The translations under genes and the position numbers were made by a program. A stretch of 64,000 bases of DNA from Acidobacteriota bacterium (GTDB taxonomy: Bacteria; Acidobacteriota; UBA6911; RPQK01; JADFOI01), in NCBI GenBank assembly GCA_963663035.1, contig OY760074.1:2016001-2080000 (forward strand). The letters run 5' to 3'. Each line of letters starts with the position of its first letter. Position 1 is the stretch's first letter. Below the pieces are notes generated by a model. The model saw nothing but the letters and a program-made list of their open reading frames with translations, had not been told where the DNA came from and made no database searches. This document shows, piece by piece, positions 35,530 through 49,310 of this stretch.

Positions 35530-36330
35530 CTAGCCGGGACGGCGGAAGTCCAGCAAATACTCGAAAGTAACACCCATCGTGATGTAGTTGCTGGGCCAGC
35601 CAAAAATGCCGACGCGATTCACGATATTGGTGCGATCCCAGATGATGATGTTACGAAGCTCGTAGCCAACACTCTGGAGAGCCTCGATCAGCGCCACGTG
35701 GATTAGGATCCTTTTGTCCTCCCACCACATATCTGGCACATTGATGACACAGTGGGCCTTGGGACGCAGGAACGGCAACAGGTTTGCATAAATACTGGCC
35801 ATCCCAGCAGCGTACTTCTCCAGCGGAAGAAGGCCCAAATCACGTGAGTCCTGCGAATACTGTTCGACTCTCATGTACTGTTCATTTTTCCGATCTTTGG
35901 TCCGTCGGCTCTTGTTCTTTCGCCTCCGATTGAGAAGGTTTGCATAGGGCGGAGATGTGAGAATGAGCGAGAGGGTTTCTTCCTCTAAATAATGTGAGAC
36001 TTTCCGTGCATCTTCGTGAAAGGCAATCTGACGACACTTTCCGCGCAAGCTTTCTTGTCCCAATCTCTCAAGACAGAGATCAATGTAACTCTTCTGTAAG
36101 TCGAAGCCCACTGCATTTCTGTCAAGGTCCCGAGCCGCAACCATGGTGGTTCCCGATGCCACAAAGGGATCAAGCACCAGCTCTCCCTGGTGCGTAAAGA
36201 GCTCTATACATCTTTTAGCCAGGGAGATAGGAAAAACGGCTGGATGGAGTTTCTTGTCGCGAATGTCTCTTCCTTCGTAGTAGGACTGCCACACACCCAG
36301 CTGTGCTTTGAGCCACTCCTTTGCTGACAT
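35530..36330 (-). CDS. Orphan amino-DNA methyltransferase (probably N4-cytosine)
   Basis: HPAVFP and VLDPFVASGTT (motif I) precede TSPPY (motif IV); IIWD and FEYLL follow. Confidence 0.82.
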   Translation of the reverse strand: MSAKEWLKAQLGVWQSYYEGRDIRDKKLHPAVFPISLAKRCIELFTHQGELVLDPFVASGTTMVAARDLDRNAVGFDLQKSYIDLCLERLGQESLRGKCRQIAFHEDARKVSHYLEEETLSLILTSPPYANLLNRRRKNKSRRTKDRKNEQYMRVEQYSQDSRDLGLLPLEKYAAGMASIYANLLPFLRPKAHCVINVPDMWWEDKRILIHVALIEALQSVGYELRNIIIWDRTNIVNRVGIFGWPSNYITMGVTFEYLLDFRRPG

Positions 36331-36564
36331 GCAATTGAGGTGCTTGGGTGAACAGGAACAGATTCTCTGGCACGGGATGTCAGCTTGGGGGGGGGCGATT
36401 CTTCGACCTGGTTGCGGAAAGACGACTCATTTCATGCTCACAGCCAATCAAAATTATAACTTCTGGGTCCGTCAATCGTGCAGAGATCCATGTGTGCTAT
36501 TTTTTTGAGTTTTTGTGACGACCACCACCCCAAAACATACTTTTATTGGCTATCCTGTCTTCAG

Positions 36565-38421
36565 ATGCACAAAGAAAACATCGCCGGGAAGACCCTCGGC
36601 TCAGGACTCAGGCACCGCAAGGAGCACAGATCCTGGAGCTGGGCGACCATCTCCCAGGAACTCGAACGGGCAATGGGTCAGACAGCCCCCCCCAAGACCA
36701 GTGTCTTCGGATACTCCACTGGAGAAGTGGAGCGACCGAACGTGTTGGTGGAGCGATATATTCAGGAGGCAATCAATAGACGCAGGATCGACGCAGTTCA
36801 AGAGCCACCAAGCCGGAGTCAAATACACTTTAGCGAGCTGGTTGAAAATGCCAGGGACCTCATCTTCCGCTATCGTCTTGCACAGCCGCAAGGCTTTGAA
36901 TATATGAGCCCGGTGGTCCAGGAGATGCTGGGCTACACCCCAGAAGACTTCTACACCGACCCCAGCCTGATCCACAAGCTCATTCACCCCGAGGACCGGC
37001 AGAGGCTGGAGCAGTCTCTCCAGGGAAAAGGTCCATATCATGAGCGGGAGACTCTTCGATGGGTGCACAGGAACGGTGGGATGCTGTGGATTCAGTGGGT
37101 GAACGTGCCCATCTATGACGAATCCGGAAACCGAGTGGCCATTGAGTGCATCGCCCGCGACATCACTTCCCAGGTGGAGGCGGAAGCAACCGCCATCCAC
37201 TTAGCCGCCATTGTCAAGTCCTCCAACGATGCCATCATTAGCACTGCACCAGATGGCTCAATTGTCAGCTGGAATGCCGCCGCGGAGCGTCTCTTTGGCT
37301 ACACGGCCCAAGAGGTGATCGGACGCACCGCCGCGATCCTCCGGCCAGGGTACAAGGCGGGGCAGTATTCTGAGATTTTTGAGAGACTCATAAAAGGCGA
37401 ACGGTTAGAATATTCTGACACGGTAGGAGTTTGCAAAAGCGGCCGGCGAGTTCACCTCTCTGTAAACATCTCTCCCATCCGAAATAACCTAGGTCAGATC
37501 ATTGGGTTCTCCGCGATCGTCCGCGACATCATAGAGCGCAAGTGGGCCGAGGAAAAGAATCGGAAGAGCCAGGAACGCTACCAACAGCTGTTCGAGAACG
37601 CGCCAGATATGATGGCTGTGATTTCCTATCCGGACGGAGAGGTCCTGGAATGCAACCAAACTCTGGTGGATGAGGTTGGCCTGAACAAAGAAGAGATCGT
37701 GGGGCGCTCCTGGCTGAAACTGTATCCTTCCGATTCCCGAGAGACGGCCCAGGAAACGTTTACGACCTATGTCCAGACAGGCAAACTACCCTGGAAGGAG
37801 CGTACCCTCCTGCGAGCCGACGGAAGCACCTTTCCTGCTCTGGTACAGGTGATGCCGATCTCTGATGAAGCAGGCTCAATTGTGGCCACTCACGTTACCT
37901 GGCGAGACATCAGCGACCTGAAACAGACCCAACAGGCTCTAGAGCAAAAGGAAAGAGAGCTATTCGCGTCTCAAAAGATGGAAGCCATTGGAACCTTGGC
38001 CGGTGGCATTGCCCATGACTTCAACAACCTCCTGACCGGTATTCGAGGCTACGCACAATTACTGCAGGAGAAACTAGAGCCAGCCTCTCCTCAAAGCAAG
38101 GATGTCCTTGAGATACTGGCATGTTCTGATCGTGCTGCGGCCTTAACAGCTCACCTTTTGGCCTTCAGCCGAAGACAACTCTTCGACCCCGTAGTCCTCC
38201 ATCTCAACTCAGTGATCGAGAACACCTGCAAAATACTCAAACGGCTGATTGGAGAGGACATAAGCCTGAACTTCGTGGCTGCCACGAACCGAGACAATAT
38301 TCGAGCCGATCCGGGTTACATCGAGCAGGTACTGATGAATCTGACCATCAATGGACGCGACGCCATGCCCGATGGGGGCACACTCACCATCACAACTTCC
38401 CACGTGACGGTGAAGCAGAAC
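36565..38421 (+). pseudogene. PAS-PAS-PAS hybrid histidine kinase, 5' part, interrupted by IS3/IS1380
   Basis: Three PAS/PAC units, H-box GGIAHDFNNLLT and N-box EQVLMNLTINGRDAM; ends at the IS3 TGA. Confidence 0.9.
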
Positions 38422-39688
38422 TGACCTTGCCCCCTAAAACGAGTCCAGTTTGAATGTTAGGATTTCCGGTTTAGGAAGGAGGCAAGGATGGCAGGGAAGC
38501 GGTTTAGGGCAGAACAGATCATCATGAAGCTGCGTGAGGCAGAGGTGGGTCTGGCCCAAGGACAGAGGGTGGGACAGGTGTCGAAGCAGATGGGGGTGAG
38601 CGAGCAGACCTACTACCGGTGGCGCAAAGAGTACGGAGGGCTCCGGTTGGACCAGGCCAAGAGGTTGAAGGTGTTGGAGAAGGAGAATACCCGGTTGAAG
38701 AAGCTGGTGGCGGATCTGTCTTTGGACAAGCAGATCCTGAAGGAAGTGTCCTCGGGAAACTTCTAGGCCCGGCGAACAGGAGACGAGCGGTGATGTGGGT
38801 ACGAGAGCGATTAGGAGCAGAGCGAGTCTCCGAACGTCGGGCCTGCCAAGTGCTGGGACAGGTTCGATCGACCCAGCGAAGGGAAAGGCAAATTCCCGAT
38901 GATGAGGCCCGATTGGTGGCCCGGATGGTGGAGTTGGCTACGCAATACGGGCGTTATGGCTACCGGCGGGTCACGGCGATACTTCATGGGGAAGGGTGGA
39001 AGGTGAATCCTAAGCGGGTGGAGAGGCTGTGGAGACAAGAAGGGCTGAAAGTCCCGTCCAGACAGCCGAAACGAAGGAGGCTGTGGCTTAATGACGGTTC
39101 CTGTGTTCGGTTACGAGCGGCTCGCAAGAACCACGTCTGGAGCTATGATTTCGTGCATGAACGGACCCATGATGGGCGAGCCTTTCGGCTATTGACGATC
39201 CTGGATGAGTACACCAGAGAGTGCCTCGCCATTGATGTGAAACGGCAGATGAATCACCAAGACGTGTTGGACCGGCTGGCGGAGTTATTCGTTGATCGGG
39301 GAGTGCCTGAGTTTATCCGGTCCGATAACGGATCGGAGTTTACGGCACAGGCGGTCCGGGACTGGCTGCAGGCTGTTGGGGTAAGGACCTTGTACATCGA
39401 GCCGGGCAGCCCCTGGGAGAATGGGTACATTGAGAGTTTCAACGGGAAACTACGGGATGAGCTGCTGAACATGGAGATCTTCGACACGCTGGGGGAAGCC
39501 AAGGTGTTGGTAGAACGCTGGCGGAGGGATTACAATCAGATCCGGCCTCACAGCGCCTTGGCCTATCGGCCGCCGGCGCCAGAGGCCAAACTACCTAGGT
39601 CGCAGGCACTGGATCCAATCCCTTGGAGTGGACTTCAAATGGTCCCGGGTCTAGCATAGAGGGTGGACTCGTTCGTGGGGGCAGGTCA
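38422..39688 (+). mobile_element. IS3-family element, copy 2 (matches copy 1)
   Basis: Same 1267-bp length, IRs and OrfA/OrfB (38488-39659); no TSD. Confidence 0.95.
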
Positions 39689-40375
39689 CCCGTCTCGCCA
39701 TCGAATAGCAGCAGCGGATGATACATGTGCTCGCGATAATAGCCGTGGTAAAAGCTGAACTCCTGCTGCCCATGCGTGACGTCATCCGTGCTGTCGATGT
39801 CCAGGATGATCTTCTCGGGCCGGCTCTTCTTGCGGTGCTTCAAGTAGGTCTCCAGCAGCCACTGTCCCAGGCGAGTGAGATCCTTCGAGTCCACCGAGTT
39901 CTCCAGTCGCGACAGCGTGGGTTGAGAAGCCAGATCCGGATCGCTTTCCGGCAGCCGATCACACACGGTCTTGAAGATGGGATCCGAGCGCAAGCTGTCG
40001 GCATCGTTGCAGTCCTCATAGCCGGCCACGATCTGAAAGCTGCGCTGGGTGAGCAGTTCGCGAATCTGGTGGCGGACGTAGCGGCTATCTCGAGCGTCCT
40101 TCAGGCAGGAGGCAAAGCCAGCCGTCAGTCCGTGCTGTTGATCCAGGGCGTACAGACACAGCAGCCCGGCATCGGAGGAGAGCCGGCCTCCATCGAATCG
40201 AGCCACCACTTTTCTGTCAGGGTGAGATGGCAAGTTGATCTGGCAGACTGATGCATCGCTGGGCCGTACCTTTTTGGTTTGGAGTTGTTTCATAACCCCT
40301 TTTATATCAAAGAGGTACGGCATCTTTTTGTGCCCTCGATCAGACCCCTTCTTCAGAATTTATGAATAATCCGGG
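39689..40375 (-). mobile_element. Truncated IS1380-family element (left end and 5' part of transposase)
   Basis: Reverse complement of the start of 55845-57483; CTAG at 40376-40379; cut at the IS3 boundary. Confidence 0.92.
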
Positions 40376-41041
40376 CTAGAAGCTGGCCGCTACGTGGTAC
40401 TGGTCGTAACCGACACTGGCTGTGGAATGGATCAAGCGACACAGCAAAGGATCTTTGAGCCTTTCTTTACGACCAAGGACGTGGGCGACGGAACAGGTCT
40501 GGGTTTGTCCACTGTCTATGGCATTATCAAACAGCACCACGGTTACATCTGGGTAGACAGCCAACCCGGCGAGGGGTCAAGCTTCACCATCTATTTACCA
40601 TCCACGGATAAAGAGGTGGAAGAGAAGACTAAGCAGGTCAAGCAAGAGGGGACACTCAAGGGCTCTGAAGTGATCTTGGTTGCAGAGGACGAAGAGCCGG
40701 TGCGCGAGGTCTTAAACCGTGTCCTGAAGGAGTTGGGATACACGGTCCTCTCCGCGAGCCATGCGCAAGAGGCGGAAGCACTACTTATGAAGCACGATGG
40801 TGAGATCGACCTTCTTTTGAGTGATGTCATCATGCCTGGTCGAAGCGGCCCAGCTCTGTATAGCAGGCTCAAGGACAAGCGGCCCTCCCTGAGGGTCTTA
40901 TACATGTCCGGCTATGCCGAAACCATGTTCGGCTCCTTGGATCCTTGCGCTCCCTTCCTTTCCAAGCCTTTCACCCATGAGATCCTGGCACAGAAGGTGC
41001 GAGAGGTACTCGATGGCAAGAGAGTGGAGGCTGGACGATAA
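40376..41041 (+). pseudogene. Hybrid histidine kinase, 3' part (rest of HATPase_c + receiver)
   Basis: LEAGRYVVLVVTDTGCGM, FEPFFTTK, GTGLGL, AEDE, SDVIMP and SKPF motifs. Confidence 0.9.
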
Positions 41042-41086: not shown

Positions 41087-41533
41087 ATGACACAAAAGTC
41101 AGCTACCAAAATTCTAATCGTCGACGATGAGTTCTACATACGGGACATCCTCTCGCAATGGTTAACGGAGGAGGGATACGAGTGTGTCACCGCCGGGGGC
41201 GTCGATGAAGCCTGTAAGCTACTGACAGAGCATAGCTTCTCTTTGGCCCTGTTGGATATCATGATGCACGAGAAGCCGGGGACCGTCATTCTTCAGGGAC
41301 TCAGGGAAGACCAACCGCAGATCGCCGTTCTTATGGTGACTGCTTTGGACGATCCTGGGATCGTCGCGGAAACCGATCGGTTTGGTGCTTCCGGATACAT
41401 CACCAAACCATTCGATCGAGATGAGATTACCGGTAATGTTGCCAGTGCGCTGCGGCGTCGTGAAGAGGCTCTGCAAGCCGGAGAGTCTCAAATGCGCCTG
41501 GAGCAAGAACTCCGGGAACTGAAATCCGGCTAG
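41087..41533 (+). CDS. Single-domain response regulator with coiled-coil tail
   Basis: ILIVDDE, LLDIMM, MVTA and YITKPF motifs. Confidence 0.9.
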   Translation: MTQKSATKILIVDDEFYIRDILSQWLTEEGYECVTAGGVDEACKLLTEHSFSLALLDIMMHEKPGTVILQGLREDQPQIAVLMVTALDDPGIVAETDRFGASGYITKPFDRDEITGNVASALRRREEALQAGESQMRLEQELRELKSG

Positions 41534-41553
41534 CCCGGTTGACCTGCCCTTCC

Positions 41554-41928
41554 CTACTCCTCGGAAAGAGCAGGCACAGAGGAAACATCAGGCGGATCCG
41601 GGATCGACTCCAGGTATTCGTAGATGTCTCGCAGCTTTTCGTCGGTCAGTACCTTGGGTGAGTAAGCCGGCATGACATTAGGAGGCCGCCGCACCACGCT
41701 GGAGAAGGCCGCGAAGGGCAGCGGATCGGGGGCAAGGCGCGGGCCGCTCCCTCCATTGCCGTCATAGCCGTGGCACTGATAGCAGCCCATTTCGATGTAC
41801 TCCTCACTACCGGGTGGGAACTGGTCCTCTTCCTGCGCGCCCGCCCCTCTCATCCTTCCACCCAACACCAAGGCGGCTACCACCACAGCGAGGACAAGCA
41901 GGGTCTGTTGACGATTCTTGCTCTTCAT
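41554..41928 (-). CDS. Monoheme cytochrome c
   Basis: Signal peptide, CYQCH and distal Met in NVMP; AGGAG RBS overlapping the upstream stop. Confidence 0.9.
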   Translation of the reverse strand: MKSKNRQQTLLVLAVVVAALVLGGRMRGAGAQEEDQFPPGSEEYIEMGCYQCHGYDGNGGSGPRLAPDPLPFAAFSSVVRRPPNVMPAYSPKVLTDEKLRDIYEYLESIPDPPDVSSVPALSEE

Positions 41929-41939
41929 GGCTGTACTCC

Positions 41940-43871
41940 TTAACGAGGCTGGCACACAACATCCACCAGAGCGCACCCGCCCCGTTTCACCACATCGACG
42001 GCGCGTTTGAATGCCCCTGCCAACTGGGTGGGGTCGCTGATCGGTCCTTCCGCCGACACCCCCATACTCCTGGCCAAAGCGGCATAGTCAATATAGGGAT
42101 CCTCAAAGACATTGCCGATCTTGGCCGGGCCGTCGACACCGCGCTGCCGCCGTGCCGCAATACGTTGGATATGCATCACCTCCTGGTGATAGGCGCGGTT
42201 GTTGTTGATCACCATGAGAAGGGGAATATCGTGATGAGTAGCGGTCCACAACGCCCCCGACGAGTACATCAGATCACCGTCGGCCACAACGCTGACCGAC
42301 AGGCGGCCATGTTCGCGGTTTGCCAGCGCAGCGCCAATCGACGCCGGGGCTCCGTAACCAAGTCCCCCCGCGCCCGAGCCCCCGATGTACTGGTAATGCT
42401 TGTTCATCGTCCAAAAGCGTCGCGCACCACCGGTCAATTTCTGACCGACCAGAGACCAGTCGTGGTCCTTGATCTGCTGCCCCAGCTCGACCATGAGCCG
42501 GGTGGTGCTGATCGGACTGGAGTTCCAACCATAGGTGGCTTGCTTGCGCGCTTGAGTGCGACTGTCCTGGTGGCTTTTCCGAAACTCATCCTCACGAGCA
42601 GAGTTCTGGGAGCGACGCTGGGCTGTCATTGCGCGCCTGACCTCCTCGATCAAAGCCGGCAGGGATGCCTGGGCGTCACCGGCGATGGAAAGATCAACGG
42701 GCTGGTAGCGCTGGAAGTTCTGATAGTTGGCCTTGAGGTACACGTCGTTTAGGCCAAGACTGATGAGCTTAACGTCGGGGCTCAGGACGCGCCGCGTCTC
42801 ACGGTGGGGAAGATCGCGCATGCTCCAGACCGTGGTCCAGAAACTGCCCACCTCCAATCCCAGAACGACGTCGGCCTCGCGCACCAGGCGCCTCGACTGA
42901 TAGAGATGGTGATCGTTGGGAAAGTTCATACGGCCACCCCGGTCTGAAACCGGAATCTGAAGCAACTCGGCAAGCTCCACCAGGTCCTCCATTCCCTCCG
43001 GCGTGCGGGCCATACTTCCAGCCATGATCACGGGGCGCTCTGCGTTCACCAGCATTCGCGCCACCTCACGCAAGGCGCCGGTCTCCCCCTGTGAGGGAAC
43101 CGTCGGTCTGAACTCTGGAATAGCCGGCCGGTTATCGCCGACTTCCATTTCCTGCAGGTGGCCGTCCAGGGTAATCACCACCGGTCCCATGGGCGGCGTA
43201 GTAGCAATCTTGTAGGCACGCATCAAGGACTCCGTGAAATGGGCCAGCGAGACGGGGGTGTCATCCCATTTGGTGAAGTCGCGCACCAACTTGGCACAGT
43301 CCTGGGCCGCATGGGACCACTCTGCGCCGGGCCGCCGGTCGGCGGCGTCCAGGTGATTCCCAGCAAAGATAATCAGCGGCACGTGATCGGCATAAGCGTT
43401 GTAAACTGCCATCGACGCGTGCTGCAGGCCGACCGTGCCGTGGCATAACATGGCCAGGGGCTTATAGGCGATCTTGGAGTACCCGTGGCCCATGGCTATG
43501 GCGGTTTCTTCGTGCAGGCAGGTCACGAATTCAGGCGCCTTGTTGCCCCCATAGTTGACGATCGACTCCTGCAGCCCCCGGTAACTGGAGGCCGGGTTGG
43601 CGGTGATATAGTCGATGCCCAGGCTTCTAATAACATCGACCATGAAATCGGATGCCGCATTCTGGACAAAATAATGGGCAGCCTCGTCTGTGGTATAGCC
43701 ATCGGGCGGCTCCACTTCCATCCCTGCGAGGGCACTCGAGGACGGCAAAGCGGCAGCTGCACCTCCCATTTGCGCCTGGGCAAGAGCTCTGCCTGTTTGC
43801 GATTGCGCGGCCAGTCCCGAAAGTGTGCCGGCGGCTGCGACCCCCTTCAGAAAATCACGTCTGCTTGTCAT
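41940..43871 (-). CDS. Thiamine-diphosphate-dependent enzyme (ALS/BFD/POX superfamily) with Tat signal
   Basis: SRRDFLK; CLHEETA (catalytic Glu), HGTVGL and ADGDLMY...NN ThDP-binding motif. Confidence 0.9.
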   Translation of the reverse strand: MTSRRDFLKGVAAAGTLSGLAAQSQTGRALAQAQMGGAAAALPSSSALAGMEVEPPDGYTTDEAAHYFVQNAASDFMVDVIRSLGIDYITANPASSYRGLQESIVNYGGNKAPEFVTCLHEETAIAMGHGYSKIAYKPLAMLCHGTVGLQHASMAVYNAYADHVPLIIFAGNHLDAADRRPGAEWSHAAQDCAKLVRDFTKWDDTPVSLAHFTESLMRAYKIATTPPMGPVVITLDGHLQEMEVGDNRPAIPEFRPTVPSQGETGALREVARMLVNAERPVIMAGSMARTPEGMEDLVELAELLQIPVSDRGGRMNFPNDHHLYQSRRLVREADVVLGLEVGSFWTTVWSMRDLPHRETRRVLSPDVKLISLGLNDVYLKANYQNFQRYQPVDLSIAGDAQASLPALIEEVRRAMTAQRRSQNSAREDEFRKSHQDSRTQARKQATYGWNSSPISTTRLMVELGQQIKDHDWSLVGQKLTGGARRFWTMNKHYQYIGGSGAGGLGYGAPASIGAALANREHGRLSVSVVADGDLMYSSGALWTATHHDIPLLMVINNNRAYHQEVMHIQRIAARRQRGVDGPAKIGNVFEDPYIDYAALARSMGVSAEGPISDPTQLAGAFKRAVDVVKRGGCALVDVVCQPR

Positions 43872-43977
43872 TTCATTATCTCCTTGTTCTTGATGCTTGA
43901 TGCAGGCTTCATAGCCAGTGAGCTTACTTTAACTCTACGACAAGGTTTCCACAACTTCTTTTTTACGGTTTTGAGGC

Positions 43978-47054: not shown

Positions 47055-49310
47055 TTAAAGAACGGAGAAGCCTGCCTTCGTCAACGGAAGCTCTCGCACA
47101 CGATGACCGCTGGCGGCAAAGATCGCGTTGCAGATGGCCGGTGCAACCGGAGGTAGAGCGGGTTCACCAAGACCCGTGGGCGGGAAATCGCTTTCGATAA
47201 AGTGAACGTCAACCTCTGGCGCATTGGCCAGACGCAGGATTGGATATTGGTGGAAATTGGACTCCTGTACGCGCCCATTTTCTATTGAAAGCTCCAGACT
47301 CAGCATCGTGCTAAAGCCGTCGATAGCCGCACCCTGACACTGATTTTCCGCACCGCTTAGATTAATGATGGGACCGACATCGGCAGCTACCGTTACTTTA
47401 TGGACTGTCAGCTTTTTGTTCTCGTCTACACTCACCTCGGCAACTTCGGCGAAATGGCCGGCGTGACTAAAGTGGAAGGCCAGCCCCAGTCCCCGCCCGG
47501 CCGGGAACGATCTGCTCCAACCGGCTTTTTCTGCGGCAAGTCGAATAACGGCTGCGGCGCGACCGGTGTTCAGGGCACGGTCGTTTCCGGGATCCAGCCA
47601 ACGGGGCTGGCCCATCACTTCGAGGAGAAACTCAAGGTGATCGCGTCCAGCTGCCACCGCAAGCTCGTCAAGAAAGCATTGCACGGCAAAGGCAATTCCG
47701 TTTGAACGCGGTGCCCGCCATGGTCCGCAGGGCGTCGCCAGCGGCAACATGGTTTGAGTCAGTCGGTAGTTGGAAAGCAGAGGTCCGGGGAACTCCTCTT
47801 CGCCAATATTACCTCCGCTGACGGGACGTTGTCCGTCACTGGAGAAGGTCACGAAGTGATCCTGCCAGGCCGAAAGCTTGCCCGATCGATCGACTGCACC
47901 TTTGAAGGAATGGAAGCCCGCCACACGGTAAAAGTCGTGGGCCATATCGTCTTCGCGCGTCCATTGCAGTTTTACCGGTGCGTCAATCTGCTTCGAGATG
48001 GCCGCTGCTTCGCACATGGGATCATTCATTAAGCGGCGCCCGAAACCGCCGCCCACTCGGGTCTGGTGAATCGTTACCCGATCCTCGGGAATGCCGAGCA
48101 GTTTGGCCACGCTGCCAAGTCCCCGTTGGGGAGTCTGGGTGGGAGCCCAAATCTCGACCCCGCCCTCACGATACCAGGCCGTGCAGTTTTGGGGCTCAAG
48201 CGGCGCGTGTGAGAGAAATGGGTAGCTGTAGAAGGCGTCCACCGTTTTGGAGGCGCTGCTGAAGGCTTCCTCCAGGTTGCCAGTGTCGCTAATAATCTGG
48301 TTGCCGCTTTGATTGGCCAGCTCCCCGGCTCGTCGAACGGCACCACTCCAACTATCCTTGGAAGCCTGGCTTTCATCCCAGGTCACCCGAAGCTGACGTT
48401 TGGCGCTGAGAGCGGCCCAGGTGGAAGTCGCAACAATAGCGACTCCGGGCATCAGCTCTGCGACCTGCCCGTTGCCTTCCAGCACAAAGGCATCCTCGAC
48501 GCCAGGAAGCGAACGGATCTCGTCTAGATTGGCCTGGCCAACCCGGCCACCGGTGGCCGGGCATTTTTCATAGGCGGCATAGAGCATGCCCGGCACGACC
48601 TGATCGATTCCAAAAAGCGGTTGTCCGGTAACCACTTTGTGGTTATCGACGCCGCCTACCCGTGTGCCCAGCAGCTTGTAGTCTGAGCGCTCTTTCAGGG
48701 TGACAGATTGCGGGTCCGGAACCGGAAGCGCGGCTGCCCTGTTGGCCAGTTCGCCATACCCCAATCGCCGGCCACTCTGACGATGGATCACCGTACTCGT
48801 TTCTGTGGTGCACTCAGCAGTCGAAACACCCCATTCTTGGGCCGCAGCCGATACAAGCATGGCGCGGGCCACCCCGCCGGCGCGGCGCAGTTGATCCCAG
48901 CTCGAGGCCACGGATCGGGAGCCACCGGCAGACTGACGGCCATACACCGCTTGATTGATCGGTGACTGTTCCACACGCACGTCAGACCAGTCAGCGTCCA
49001 ACTCCTCGGCGACGATCATGGGCAGGGCAGTCATGACGCCCTGACCAATCTCGGGATTCTTCGAGTAGATCAGAATCGAGCCATCGGGTGATATGCGAAT
49101 GAAGGCGTTGGGGACGAACTCGCTTCCAGCCTGTGCGGCAAAAGCACTGCTCCCCCCTTCAATGTAGAAGGCAAGTGCCAGTCCCCCACCAGCCACTCCG
49201 GTCAGCTTCAGGAACGAGCGTCGACCTATGGCCTCCGCCCTGGTTTCAGCAGTTGTTTCAAACGCGGCTTCCGCCTCGCAGAGAACGTCATGAAGATATT
49301 CGTCATTCAT
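47055..49310 (-). CDS. iorB: Xanthine-oxidase-family molybdopterin subunit (isoquinoline 1-oxidoreductase beta-like), Tat signal
   Basis: RRSFLK, EIGQG, AEELD, HAPLEP, GGGFGRR and GLGEP motifs. Confidence 0.9.
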   Translation of the reverse strand: MNDEYLHDVLCEAEAAFETTAETRAEAIGRRSFLKLTGVAGGGLALAFYIEGGSSAFAAQAGSEFVPNAFIRISPDGSILIYSKNPEIGQGVMTALPMIVAEELDADWSDVRVEQSPINQAVYGRQSAGGSRSVASSWDQLRRAGGVARAMLVSAAAQEWGVSTAECTTETSTVIHRQSGRRLGYGELANRAAALPVPDPQSVTLKERSDYKLLGTRVGGVDNHKVVTGQPLFGIDQVVPGMLYAAYEKCPATGGRVGQANLDEIRSLPGVEDAFVLEGNGQVAELMPGVAIVATSTWAALSAKRQLRVTWDESQASKDSWSGAVRRAGELANQSGNQIISDTGNLEEAFSSASKTVDAFYSYPFLSHAPLEPQNCTAWYREGGVEIWAPTQTPQRGLGSVAKLLGIPEDRVTIHQTRVGGGFGRRLMNDPMCEAAAISKQIDAPVKLQWTREDDMAHDFYRVAGFHSFKGAVDRSGKLSAWQDHFVTFSSDGQRPVSGGNIGEEEFPGPLLSNYRLTQTMLPLATPCGPWRAPRSNGIAFAVQCFLDELAVAAGRDHLEFLLEVMGQPRWLDPGNDRALNTGRAAAVIRLAAEKAGWSRSFPAGRGLGLAFHFSHAGHFAEVAEVSVDENKKLTVHKVTVAADVGPIINLSGAENQCQGAAIDGFSTMLSLELSIENGRVQESNFHQYPILRLANAPEVDVHFIESDFPPTGLGEPALPPVAPAICNAIFAASGHRVRELPLTKAGFSVL

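Follow-up and report, generated by a model that had tools for sequence, protein, structure and literature searches.

The DNA analysed here (the window) is a stretch of 64,000 nucleotides. Two genes on its minus strand, encoding a thiamine diphosphate (ThDP) enzyme and a small cytochrome c, follow one another at the locus under study. The features of the locus are as follows.

41940 to 43871, minus strand: gene of the ThDP enzyme P0001, 643 aa, with its TAA stop at 41940-41942 (ORF list and translation)
43779 to 43871, minus strand: region coding for the twin-arginine signal, residues 1-31 (predicted from translation and conservation)
43880 to 43885, minus strand: ribosome binding site AAGGAG of the ThDP gene, with the ATG 8 nt further on (read from the sequence)
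43506 to 43514, minus strand: codons of H120-E121-E122, E121 being the cofactor-activating Glu (sequence and conservation)
42198 to 42284, minus strand: ThDP/Mg motif, A530-D-G-D to N557-N558 (sequence and invariance)
41936 to 41941, minus strand: ribosome binding site AAGGAG of the cytochrome gene, overlapping the TAA of the ThDP gene, with the ATG 7 nt on
41554 to 41928, minus strand: cytochrome c gene, 124 aa, monohaem class I, with its ATG at 41926-41928 and its stop at 41554-41556
41770 to 41784, minus strand: haem attachment motif C49-Y-Q-C-H53 (sequence; C49, C52 and H53 invariant)
41671 to 41673, minus strand: codon of Met86, probably the distal ligand of the haem, in an MP.Y motif (M86, P87 and Y89 invariant)

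The preliminary description of this DNA had claimed a ThDP enzyme with an HEE glutamate and an ADGD..NN motif, a canonical Tat signal at its start and a cytochrome c gene 11 bp downstream with its ribosome binding site overlapping the stop. These claims were borne out by three Pfam TPP domains together with invariant motif residues, by the translated N-terminus and by the position of AAGGAG relative to the TAA, respectively. The intergenic gap covers 41929-41939, and the two genes are best explained as one operon. The GC content of the operon was 0.57-0.61, which is inside the range of the surrounding DNA. The scan for promoter and terminator consensus sequences gave no excess over the shuffled expectation, and Rfam, riboswitches included, returned two matches only, both at chance level. 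Contigs from RNA libraries in three runs of one study matched the operon and three of them spanned the 11-bp junction, a result to be read with possible DNA carry-over in mind. In every run these contigs left stretches of the ThDP gene bare.

The domain composition of P0001 was analysed with Pfam. The models TPP_enzyme_N, TPP_enzyme_M and TPP_enzyme_C matched with 66.8, 49.9 and 82.9 bits, all above their cut-offs, indicating the three-domain architecture of PYR, middle and PP domains. The motifs HEE, ADGD and NNN were located at residues 120-122, 530-533 and 556-558, and E121, D531, G532, D533, N557 and N558 were invariant in 32/32 aligned homologues. P0001 thus carries both the activating glutamate and the GDG-X(24-27)-NN motif for Mg and diphosphate by which ThDP enzymes are recognised. 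E121 was aligned with the catalytic Glu of benzoylformate decarboxylase and is invariant in the clade and conserved in no fewer than 90% of the sisters. The invariant H144 and the nearly invariant S95 were aligned with His70 and residue 26 (Ser26) of benzoylformate decarboxylase, both of which we take to have roles in that enzyme. Judged by its residues, the ThDP catalytic apparatus of P0001 is intact. No redox cofactor besides ThDP, and no flavin or Fe-S motif, could be read from the sequence of P0001 or the alignment, in which one Cys only is invariant.

The assignment of P0001 to a known family was also analysed. The best NCBIfam match was PRK08327 ('thiamine pyrophosphate-requiring protein') with 270.6 bits, below the cut-off of 456, and the same model matched the other three ThDP enzymes with RR signals in this genome, together with a cytoplasmic paralogue, at 218-273 bits, also below the cut-off. 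The benzoylformate decarboxylase model PRK07092 gave 168.4 bits and did not reach its curated equivalog cut-off of 493. Weaker matches were obtained for the glyoxylate carboligase model (110 bits) and for the pyruvate oxidase model PRK08611, which aligned over partial stretches only (88.8 bits against a cut-off of 742). All PDB matches at E<=1e-30 (46/46) were benzoylformate decarboxylases, which are non-oxidative and free of FAD; the closest of the solved ones are about 25% identical to P0001. The nearest solved relative is benzoylformate decarboxylase MdlC (for example PDB 1bfd and 4q9d), with an E-value of 3e-31 by sequence and 7e-38 by family profile. Both enzymes belong to one three-domain ThDP fold family and have an activating Glu, a GDG...NN-type motif and the aligned His70 and Ser26 positions in common, but the decarboxylase is cytoplasmic and without a cytochrome partner. 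P0001 differs from it in the RR signal, in a conserved, clade-specific mature N-terminal extension of about 35 residues (roughly 36-72) and in the second half of the middle domain, which could not be aligned.

The N-terminus of P0001, as translated, reads as a Tat signal, having SRRDFLK at residues 3-9, an uncharged stretch (the h-region) at 10-27 and an ALA-Q site at 29-32. The Pfam model TAT_signal gave 19.0 bits, which is below its gathering score of 22.7. The residues R4 and R5 were invariant in 32/32 aligned homologues and in 49/49 clade members. An RR motif was present within the first 60 residues of 112 of the 121 proteins formed by the query and its 120 best matches, and the nine others comprise seven with a shorter N-terminus and two whose motif falls outside the search pattern. 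At related genomic loci the RR signal was found in 75/78 cases, and the signal stretch was missing from 62/62 cytoplasmic sister proteins. Clustering at 50% gave the same picture. RR signals were carried by the best full-length representatives (41-53% identity), whose alignment begins at residue 2-3, whereas in the next tier (33-40% identity, 560-610 aa) the alignment starts at residue 72-73 and no RR signal was present. The signal-bearing proteins formed a single clade with 100% SH-like support, which few residues discriminate from the cytoplasmic sisters (M77, T117, N382, E564, M566 and G578). The genome encodes TatC (214.5 bits, above the cut-off), and P0001 would be exported across the membrane.

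The cytoplasmic sister clade is 33-42% identical to P0001 and has nearly all of the invariant core residues in common with it. Since residues 1-72 are missing, these sisters are without the signal. Where examined they adjoin carboxylate transporters, not cytochromes, and the PRK08327 family is itself uncharacterised.

The second gene encodes a protein with CYQCH at residues 49-53, Met86 and a hydrophobic N-terminus that is predicted to be of Sec type with an AGA-Q site. It matched Pfam Cytochrome_CBB3 with 43.1 bits against a cut-off of 27, which places it among the class I c-type cytochromes. C49, C52, H53, M86, P87 and Y89 were invariant in 37/37 partner cytochromes. Among the 74 related loci with at least 500 nt of sequence downstream, a same-strand frame with CxxCH was found within 900 nt downstream in 60; the controls gave 4/74 upstream and 5/74 on the opposite strand. 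The partner cytochromes extracted downstream of related ThDP genes were homologous to the cytochrome of the window in 63/63 cases (E<1e-5). The partner profile also matched the cytochrome subunit of p-cresol methylhydroxylase (1e-8) and alcohol dehydrogenase cytochrome subunits. Three Cytochrom_C_asm (cytochrome c assembly) matches and a haem-copper oxidase were present in the genome.

The preliminary description had named homologues without the Tat motif, or without the cytochrome neighbour, as results that would speak against its reading. Neither holds. The RR signal defines the whole clade, and tblastn located a homologous cytochrome c, which co-diverges with the enzyme, at 72/80 related loci from Acidobacteriota and Proteobacteria. 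At 7 loci with room for a partner, no cytochrome was found within about 6 kb. The identity matrices of enzyme and cytochrome were correlated over 50 pairs with a Mantel r of 0.85, a value equalled by 0 of 999 permutations and confounded by shared descent. The two genes are thus encoded and conserved together, as in a two-component dehydrogenase:cytochrome c system.

The co-occurrence of the two genes was also analysed at the level of genomes. Of the 201 genomes sampled from the phylum, 5 have the enzyme at E<=1e-150. In these same five genomes, directly downstream of the enzyme gene, lay the top five matches (93-144 bits) that the cytochrome profile gave across all 201, and the profile had a single match in the genome of the window. 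Five genomes that have no cytochrome neighbour at the sampled locus all encode full-length copies elsewhere. They carry 2-6 enzyme paralogues each, 23 altogether; a cytochrome copy of their own lies within 400 nt of 15 of these and within 3 kb of a further 2. This expansion in the five surveyed genomes would presumably serve different substrates. At least 597 related stretches were found in a collection of species-representative genomes, a count that may include cytoplasmic sister proteins.

Fused forms of enzyme and cytochrome were looked for among proteins of 1127-3215 aa and none was found, which is weak evidence; CxxCH was absent from all of the 120 best enzyme matches. The homologue P0131 was considered as such a fusion and rejected. 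It was read as a frameshift or gene-calling artefact because its enzyme part ends at query residue 616 and the signal peptide of the cytochrome itself lies in the middle of the protein.

This genome also encodes two members of a second ThDP family (26% identity with P0001), each with an RR signal and with a dihaem cytochrome gene 13-18 bp downstream. Among its 120 best matches, 110 are at least 600 aa long and 100 of these 110 carry the RR motif. The metagenomes yielded 433 related stretches, and a CxxCH frame lay downstream at 52/65 metagenome loci, as compared with 2/65 on the minus strand and 7/51 upstream. The dihaem partner has a SorB-like domain (68 bits, below the cut-off of 93), and no relationship between it and the monohaem partner was detectable by hhalign (probability 6.9%). 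An unrooted tree built from the two families with RR signals plus the cytoplasmic sisters split into three groups, and is therefore compatible with one as well as with two origins of export.

The neighbouring genes were clustered over 80 loci for indications of the substrate. Nothing but the cytochrome was widely conserved, the best other cluster being present at 13/80 loci; the neighbours are otherwise heterogeneous and therefore do not indicate a substrate. A periplasmic PQQ dehydrogenase (8/80) and a molybdenum hydroxylase (6/80) were found as minority neighbours. In the cases examined, the genes of the cytoplasmic sisters sit behind a DASS symporter or a TctABC tricarboxylate transporter, and a D-2-hydroxyacid dehydrogenase gene lies upstream of the second-family operon. 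The transporters and the dehydrogenase gene hint at a carboxylate substrate. The substrate class is probably that of the 2-oxoacids, an aldehyde being less likely.

An enzyme with an export signal, whose gene is paired with that of a dedicated small haem protein in hundreds of bacterial species, suggests a respiratory enzyme of a kind not yet described. The explanation favoured here, which we regard as probable without holding it firmly, is a periplasmic ThDP-dependent dehydrogenase that acts, probably on 2-oxoacids, by reducing its dedicated cytochrome c. The ThDP enzyme would fold in the cytoplasm, load ThDP and Mg and most likely form a dimer or tetramer like its relatives, and Tat would then export it in the folded state. 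Its small cytochrome partner would leave by Sec, with haem attachment taking place in the periplasm. Once outside the membrane, the ThDP enzyme would bind a small carbonyl compound as its substrate, from which the carbanion/enamine on ThDP would arise. This intermediate would be oxidised by the dedicated cytochrome c in two one-electron steps and no aldehyde would be released. Hydrolysis of the resulting acyl-ThDP would yield the acid, and the reduced cytochrome would pass its electrons to the aerobic respiratory chain. The reaction would be the oxidative decarboxylation of a 2-oxoacid or aldehyde, with electrons moving from ThDP to haem and with a flavin either present or absent between the two. 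In a bolder form, which is put forward tentatively and which we consider less probable than the general explanation, the pair would represent an unrecognised class of respiratory dehydrogenase in which the enamine or its radical is oxidised directly by haem c without flavin or Fe-S, and which came into being on at least two occasions with unrelated cytochromes and expanded to 2-6 paralogues. We know of no precedent for the oxidation of a ThDP intermediate by a c-type haem.

The proposed mechanism is similar to those of pyruvate oxidase/PoxB (pyruvate:quinone oxidoreductase) and pyruvate:ferredoxin oxidoreductase, which are known to oxidise the ThDP intermediate and feed a redox chain. For the known oxidising ThDP enzymes, the electron acceptors are FAD, iron-sulfur clusters or lipoamide. 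The PoxB-type enzymes use FAD (to O2 or quinone) and pyruvate:ferredoxin oxidoreductase uses [4Fe-4S] (to ferredoxin), and these enzymes are cytoplasmic or lie on the cytoplasmic face of the membrane, whereas here a c-type haem outside the membrane is the sole visible acceptor. In its gene logic, which combines a Tat signal on a cofactor-loaded catalytic subunit with an adjoining gene for a small class I cytochrome c exported by Sec, the pair follows the pattern of SorAB sulfite dehydrogenase, of the flavocytochrome c p-cresol methylhydroxylase and of PQQ alcohol dehydrogenase with its cytochrome. The catalytic cofactors of these systems are molybdopterin, FAD or PQQ, not ThDP. To our knowledge, ThDP is not among the cofactors of Tat substrates or cytochrome c-linked dehydrogenases, and every characterised ThDP enzyme resides in the cytoplasm or an organelle matrix.

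Among the other explanations, the strongest is that of an exported but non-oxidative ThDP lyase, decarboxylase or carboligase, whose neighbouring cytochrome serves another, aldehyde-handling dehydrogenase of the periplasm or has a structural or anchoring role. It agrees with the non-oxidative nature of the nearest solved relatives, with the retention of the benzoylformate decarboxylase-like His and Ser positions and with the lack of a visible flavin or Fe-S motif; moreover, the PQQ dehydrogenase or the molybdenum hydroxylase nearby could use a cytochrome c. These two are minority neighbours, however, and the ThDP enzyme is the only dehydrogenase conserved beside the cytochrome. The cytochrome is specific to the family, is present as a single copy in the genome of the window and is found in the same genomes as the enzyme, and the enzyme paralogues tend to have a cytochrome copy each. 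The second ThDP family, moreover, took an unrelated cytochrome at the same position. The non-oxidative explanation is thus considered unlikely.

A pyruvate-oxidase-like ThDP-flavocytochrome c is a variant of the favoured explanation with another electron path, in which FAD in the middle domain takes two electrons and gives them to the haem one at a time. P0001 contains TPP_enzyme_M, the domain by which acetolactate synthases and pyruvate oxidases bind FAD, and the partner profile matches the cytochrome subunit of a flavocytochrome. Two FAD-dependent families, glyoxylate carboligase and pyruvate oxidase, are among the weaker NCBIfam matches of P0001, which also speaks for this variant, and a flavin loaded in the cytoplasm would suit Tat export. 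Against it, the best-scoring characterised families, like all the PDB matches within the threshold, are the FAD-free benzoylformate decarboxylases. FAD-binding relatives have a glycine-rich loop and an RFDDR motif past the first strand of the middle domain, where the family consensus is PVI.ADR.AR instead of a glycine-rich loop. The flavin-containing path is rated as rather improbable. That the cytochrome acts on the enzyme, as redox sensor, regulator or reductive donor, or that the RR signal fails to bring about export and leaves the enzyme in the cytoplasm, is very improbable in spite of the TAT_signal score below the cut-off, since the RR motif and the uncharged h-region are invariant in the clade and missing in the cytoplasmic sisters, class I cytochromes of high potential donate electrons poorly to reductive carboxylation, and c-type cytochromes mature only outside the membrane, where an enzyme left in the cytoplasm would have no contact with this conserved neighbour.

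The literature was searched for earlier descriptions of such a system. Full texts gave no description of an exported ThDP enzyme with a cytochrome c, although the supplementary tables of Tat-substrate surveys might list such proteins. The available portions of PMC6050957 and PMC3305326 had no bearing on a ThDP enzyme-cytochrome system. The database names, taken from the sources of the homologues and from the Atlas clusters reached through the homologue P0042, were only generic, acetolactate-synthase-like or "thiamine pyrophosphate-binding protein". Both searches are in accordance with the earlier statement that no characterised example was known.

If the favoured explanation is true, ThDP would join the short list of cofactors that Tat carries across the membrane, and a new type of acceptor would be added to ThDP redox chemistry. 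Soil and aquatic Acidobacteriota and Proteobacteria could then respire extracellular organic acids or aldehydes; if direct oxidation by haem is also true, these compounds would be burnt outside the cytoplasmic membrane without uptake. The gene pair was found on plasmids in three cultured strains, Burkholderia sp. SFA1, Caballeronia zhejiangensis and Novosphingobium sp. KACC 22771, so that the question is directly testable at the bench.

The ThDP (thiamine diphosphate) enzyme P0001 and its neighbouring cytochrome c are encoded by two genes found by ORF translation:
41940-43871, minus strand: ThDP enzyme gene, 643 aa
41554-41928, minus strand: cytochrome c gene, 124 aa

P0001 contained all three Pfam ThDP-enzyme domains, every one over its cut-off, with the HEE glutamate motif at residues 120-122 and the Mg/diphosphate motif ADGD...NN at residues 530-558. 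Its N-terminus carries SRRDFLK (residues 3-9), and an uncharged stretch of 18 residues leads from there to the ALA|Q junction. The 124-aa protein begins with positive charge followed by a hydrophobic stretch, bears the haem motif CYQCH at residues 49-53 and scored 43.1 bits with Pfam Cytochrome_CBB3. The genes are separated by 11 bp; AAGGAG stands ahead of the ATG in both, and that of the cytochrome gene overlaps the TAA of the ThDP gene. Since motifs, gap and overlap all match, the preliminary description of this pair was correct to the base, the one reservation being the Pfam TAT_signal score of 19.0 bits, below the 22.7 threshold with the model taken alone. RNA-library contigs from three runs of one study matched the operon at 99-100% identity, and three of them (41451-42102, 41837-42022 and 41728-41991) spanned the junction. 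Their cover stops at 43907; a DNA run goes on beyond. These contigs of a single study, in which DNA carry-over is possible, are compatible with a single transcript but fall short of proof. Neither the promoter and terminator scans nor Rfam and GC content showed a signal over background.

No curated NCBIfam cut-off was reached by P0001 (PRK08327 270.6 against 456, benzoylformate decarboxylase (BFD) 168.4 against 493, pyruvate oxidase 88.8 against 742), which therefore places it by sequence in the ThDP decarboxylase-type superfamily, outside any characterised family. The closest solved structures were BFDs (E 3e-31 by sequence, 7e-38 by profile), as was every one of the 46 PDB sequences found at E<=1e-30. 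They share about 25% identity with P0001, whose middle domain is unalignable in its second half. Only one cysteine is invariant in the P0001 family, and its alignment held no Fe-S motif. The cytochrome belongs to class I; among solved structures it comes closest to cytochrome domains in actinobacterial bc1 complexes and in cbb3 oxidase CcoP, and to the p-cresol methylhydroxylase cytochrome subunit.

The conservation of the export signal was analysed with a word-index homologue search, in which 7981 of 8000 scored candidates had E<=1e-10. The best 120 of these 7981 were 51-93% identical to P0001 by best local alignment, mostly about 640-670 aa long, and bore generic names only. The twin-arginine (RR) motif noted in the preliminary description was kept in the homologues, being present within the first 60 residues of 112 of 121 sequences (P0001 and its 120 best matches); seven of the other nine were N-terminally shorter and two had a motif missed by the pattern. 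When 1.84 billion cluster representatives were searched exhaustively, 973 matched at E<=1e-30, in two tiers. Full-length representatives of the upper tier (41-53% identity) aligned from residue 2-3 and carried RR signals, whereas the next tier (33-40% identity, 560-610 aa) aligned from residue 72-73 and lacked them. A FastTree of 89 sequences placed the proteins that bear the signal in one clade with 100% SH-like support, which also takes in three N-terminally shorter sequences. Two outliers flagged by the pattern were false positives, with the motif inside the first domain. The predicted export signal is a character of one clade. Apart from the signal, only M77, T117, N382, E564, M566 and G578 discriminate this clade from its cytoplasmic sisters, and the catalytic core is common to both. 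TatC is encoded in the window's genome.

The association with the cytochrome was examined at locus level. A one-genome-per-species scan gave at least 597 related stretches, among which cytoplasmic sister proteins may be included; the best 80 came from Acidobacteriota and Alpha-, Beta- and Gammaproteobacteria. A same-strand CxxCH frame lay within 900 nt downstream in 60 of the 74 loci with at least 500 nt of downstream sequence, against 4/74 upstream and 5/74 on the opposite strand; the count leaves out two loci of the 80, which had no single ThDP frame by pattern. All 63 downstream cytochromes extracted matched the window's cytochrome at E<1e-5. By tblastn 72 of the 80 loci had a homologue somewhere (five convergent, two upstream); of the eight without one, one locus breaks off 115 nt past the enzyme gene. 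The gene pair described for the window is conserved in most of these loci, and the cytochrome is the predicted dedicated partner of the ThDP enzyme. Some partners are dihaem forms. G40, C49, C52, H53, G59, R80, M86, P87 and Y89 were invariant in 37 aligned partners. Pairwise identities of enzymes and cytochromes correlated over 50 pairs, after removal of dihaem, truncated and over-long calls (Mantel r=0.85, a value inflated by shared descent; 0 of 999 permutations as high). A 643-aa metagenome protein, P0131, appeared to be an enzyme-cytochrome fusion; its enzyme part goes no further than query residue 616, and the cytochrome keeps its own signal peptide in the middle. Most likely P0131 arose by a frameshift or faulty gene calling and is not a natural fusion.

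Co-occurrence was also evaluated over whole genomes. Among 40 relatives, the enzyme was found in 8 of 14 same-family genomes and in 0 of 26 from the order's other families. It was present at E<=1e-150 in 5 of 201 sampled genomes of the phylum, and the five best cytochrome-profile matches (93-144 bits) fell in exactly these five, directly downstream of the enzyme gene. The next matches (91 and 78 bits) were to the N-terminal domains of proteins 365-392 aa long, near which no ThDP gene lies; the window's genome had one match in total. Seven loci had no neighbouring cytochrome despite room for one; for five of these (L022, L038, L039, L050 and L057) the genome was searched, and all five held full-length cytochrome homologues elsewhere (132-147 bits, 1-7 matches each). 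These genomes (G229-G233) contained 23 enzyme matches, 2-6 each; 15 of them were followed on the same strand by a cytochrome match within 400 nt, and another 2 had one within 3 kb. Given the co-occurrence and the own cytochrome copy of most paralogues, the pair behaves as a module, duplicating and moving as a unit. The 2-6 paralogues per genome suggest diversification for different substrates.

The window's genome encodes three further ThDP enzymes with RR signals outside the window, none reaching a curated NCBIfam cut-off:
L084 1420-3297 and L084 786-1406, minus strand: second-family ThDP enzyme and dihaem cytochrome c
L085 1450-3342 and L086 2281-2862, plus strand: second-family ThDP enzyme and dihaem cytochrome c
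L083 1429-3321, minus strand: third additional RR-signal ThDP enzyme

The two second-family enzymes share 59% identity with each other and 26% with P0001, and their dihaem cytochromes (193-206 aa) start 13 and 18 bp after the enzyme genes. The L083 enzyme is flanked by ABC transporter genes, with no cytochrome within 4.7 kb. Among the second family's 120 best matches, the RR motif was present in 100 of the 110 of at least 600 aa. Of 65 metagenome loci in which 700 nt or more of downstream sequence was available, 52 had a same-strand CxxCH frame, 42 of the 52 having two motifs, against 2/65 on the minus strand and 7/51 upstream in the controls. Profile comparison of the dihaem protein with the monohaem partner family revealed no relationship past the haem motif (probability 6.9%). 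Unrelated cytochromes were recruited to the same position by two ThDP families, and we regard this double recruitment as the strongest argument for the cytochrome as the enzyme's putative redox partner. The tree of both RR families and the cytoplasmic sisters gave three clean groups and, being unrooted, is compatible with one or two export origins.

In the proposed mechanism P0001 would fold and take up ThDP/Mg in the cytoplasm and would then be exported by Tat, steps which rest on the RR signal and TatC. A 2-oxoacid, losing CO2, or an aldehyde would give a ThDP-bound enamine, which the dedicated cytochrome would oxidise in two one-electron steps, directly or via an unseen flavin. The acyl-ThDP would be hydrolysed to the acid and the cytochrome re-oxidised by the respiratory chain. 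We infer these later steps from family chemistry and gene association; genes for cytochrome c assembly and for a haem-copper oxidase are present in the window's genome. In the literature searched in full text, mostly outside subscription journals, neither an exported ThDP enzyme nor one paired with a cytochrome c was described, in accordance with the earlier statement that no characterised example was known. The pair was rated as a variation on two known kinds, ThDP oxidoreductases and periplasmic dehydrogenases that work with a cytochrome c; specialists would find it surprising, it is widespread, and cultured strains allow it to be tested.

Substrate hints were sought among the neighbours:
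L082 100-1416, plus strand: DASS/CitMHS-type symporter gene, window's genome
L082 1534-3246, plus strand: signal-less paralogue, 42% identical to P0001, behind the symporter gene
L084 3490-4488, minus strand: D-isomer-specific 2-hydroxyacid dehydrogenase gene, preceding one second-family operon
L096 1-7692 and 8001-10564: enzyme/dihaem partner region, Burkholderia sp. SFA1 plasmid AP022311.1
L097: enzyme/dihaem partner, Caballeronia zhejiangensis plasmid

A cytoplasmic sister enzyme follows a TctABC tricarboxylate transporter in Phyllobacterium, and BFD-like His and Ser positions are conserved in the P0001 family. These transporter and dehydrogenase neighbours and the His/Ser positions lean slightly towards 2-oxo carboxylic acids as the substrate class. 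The L082 paralogue is convergent with the dihaem-cytochrome operon that the 2-hydroxyacid dehydrogenase gene precedes. Other than the cytochrome, no neighbour was widely conserved in the 80 loci (largest cluster 13/80); 8 had a PQQ dehydrogenase (in three of them directly upstream and same-strand), 8 had UbiD-like genes, 6 had molybdenum hydroxylase genes, and minorities had amidohydrolases and MFS transporters. Four Gammaproteobacteria MAG loci (L005, L006, L008, L010) have a common order of UbiD-like decarboxylase, CoxL-like molybdenum protein, NMT1-like binding protein, RR-signal ThDP enzyme and cytochrome c, then a DUF3500 protein or amidohydrolase. The plasmid pairs of SFA1 and C. zhejiangensis, annotated "thiamine pyrophosphate-binding protein" and "hypothetical protein" or "c-type cytochrome", adjoin a cluster of ring-hydroxylating dioxygenase, PdxA-like dehydrogenase, reductase, MFS transporter and porin. 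The first domain of the dihaem plasmid partner resembles the monohaem family, by eye from the translation. Novosphingobium sp. KACC 22771 has the pair too.

The operon is flanked by signalling genes (an apparently split PAS/HisKA kinase, a receiver protein and a cNMP/HD protein) and a NUDIX gene, which say little about it. Domain searches gave:
35530-36330, minus strand: 266-aa ORF, N6_N4 DNA methylase model, C-terminal part only (profile positions 142-218 of 221)
36478-38424, plus strand: PAS/HisKA part of sensor kinase
38619-39659, plus strand: rve-type integrase/transposase ORF
39595-40323, minus strand: DDE_Tnp_1_4 fragment
40394-41041, plus strand: HATPase_c/receiver part of sensor kinase
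47055-49310, minus strand: 751-aa protein, molybdopterin cofactor-binding domains MoCoBD_1 and MoCoBD_2

The last encodes a dehydrogenase subunit and shares the operon's strand, lying 3.2 kb upstream of it. The HATPase/receiver part of the kinase lies 2 kb off with two transposase genes in between, and the region 36478-41041 looks like a hybrid histidine kinase gene split by insertion sequences. The methylase-like ORF may be a remnant.
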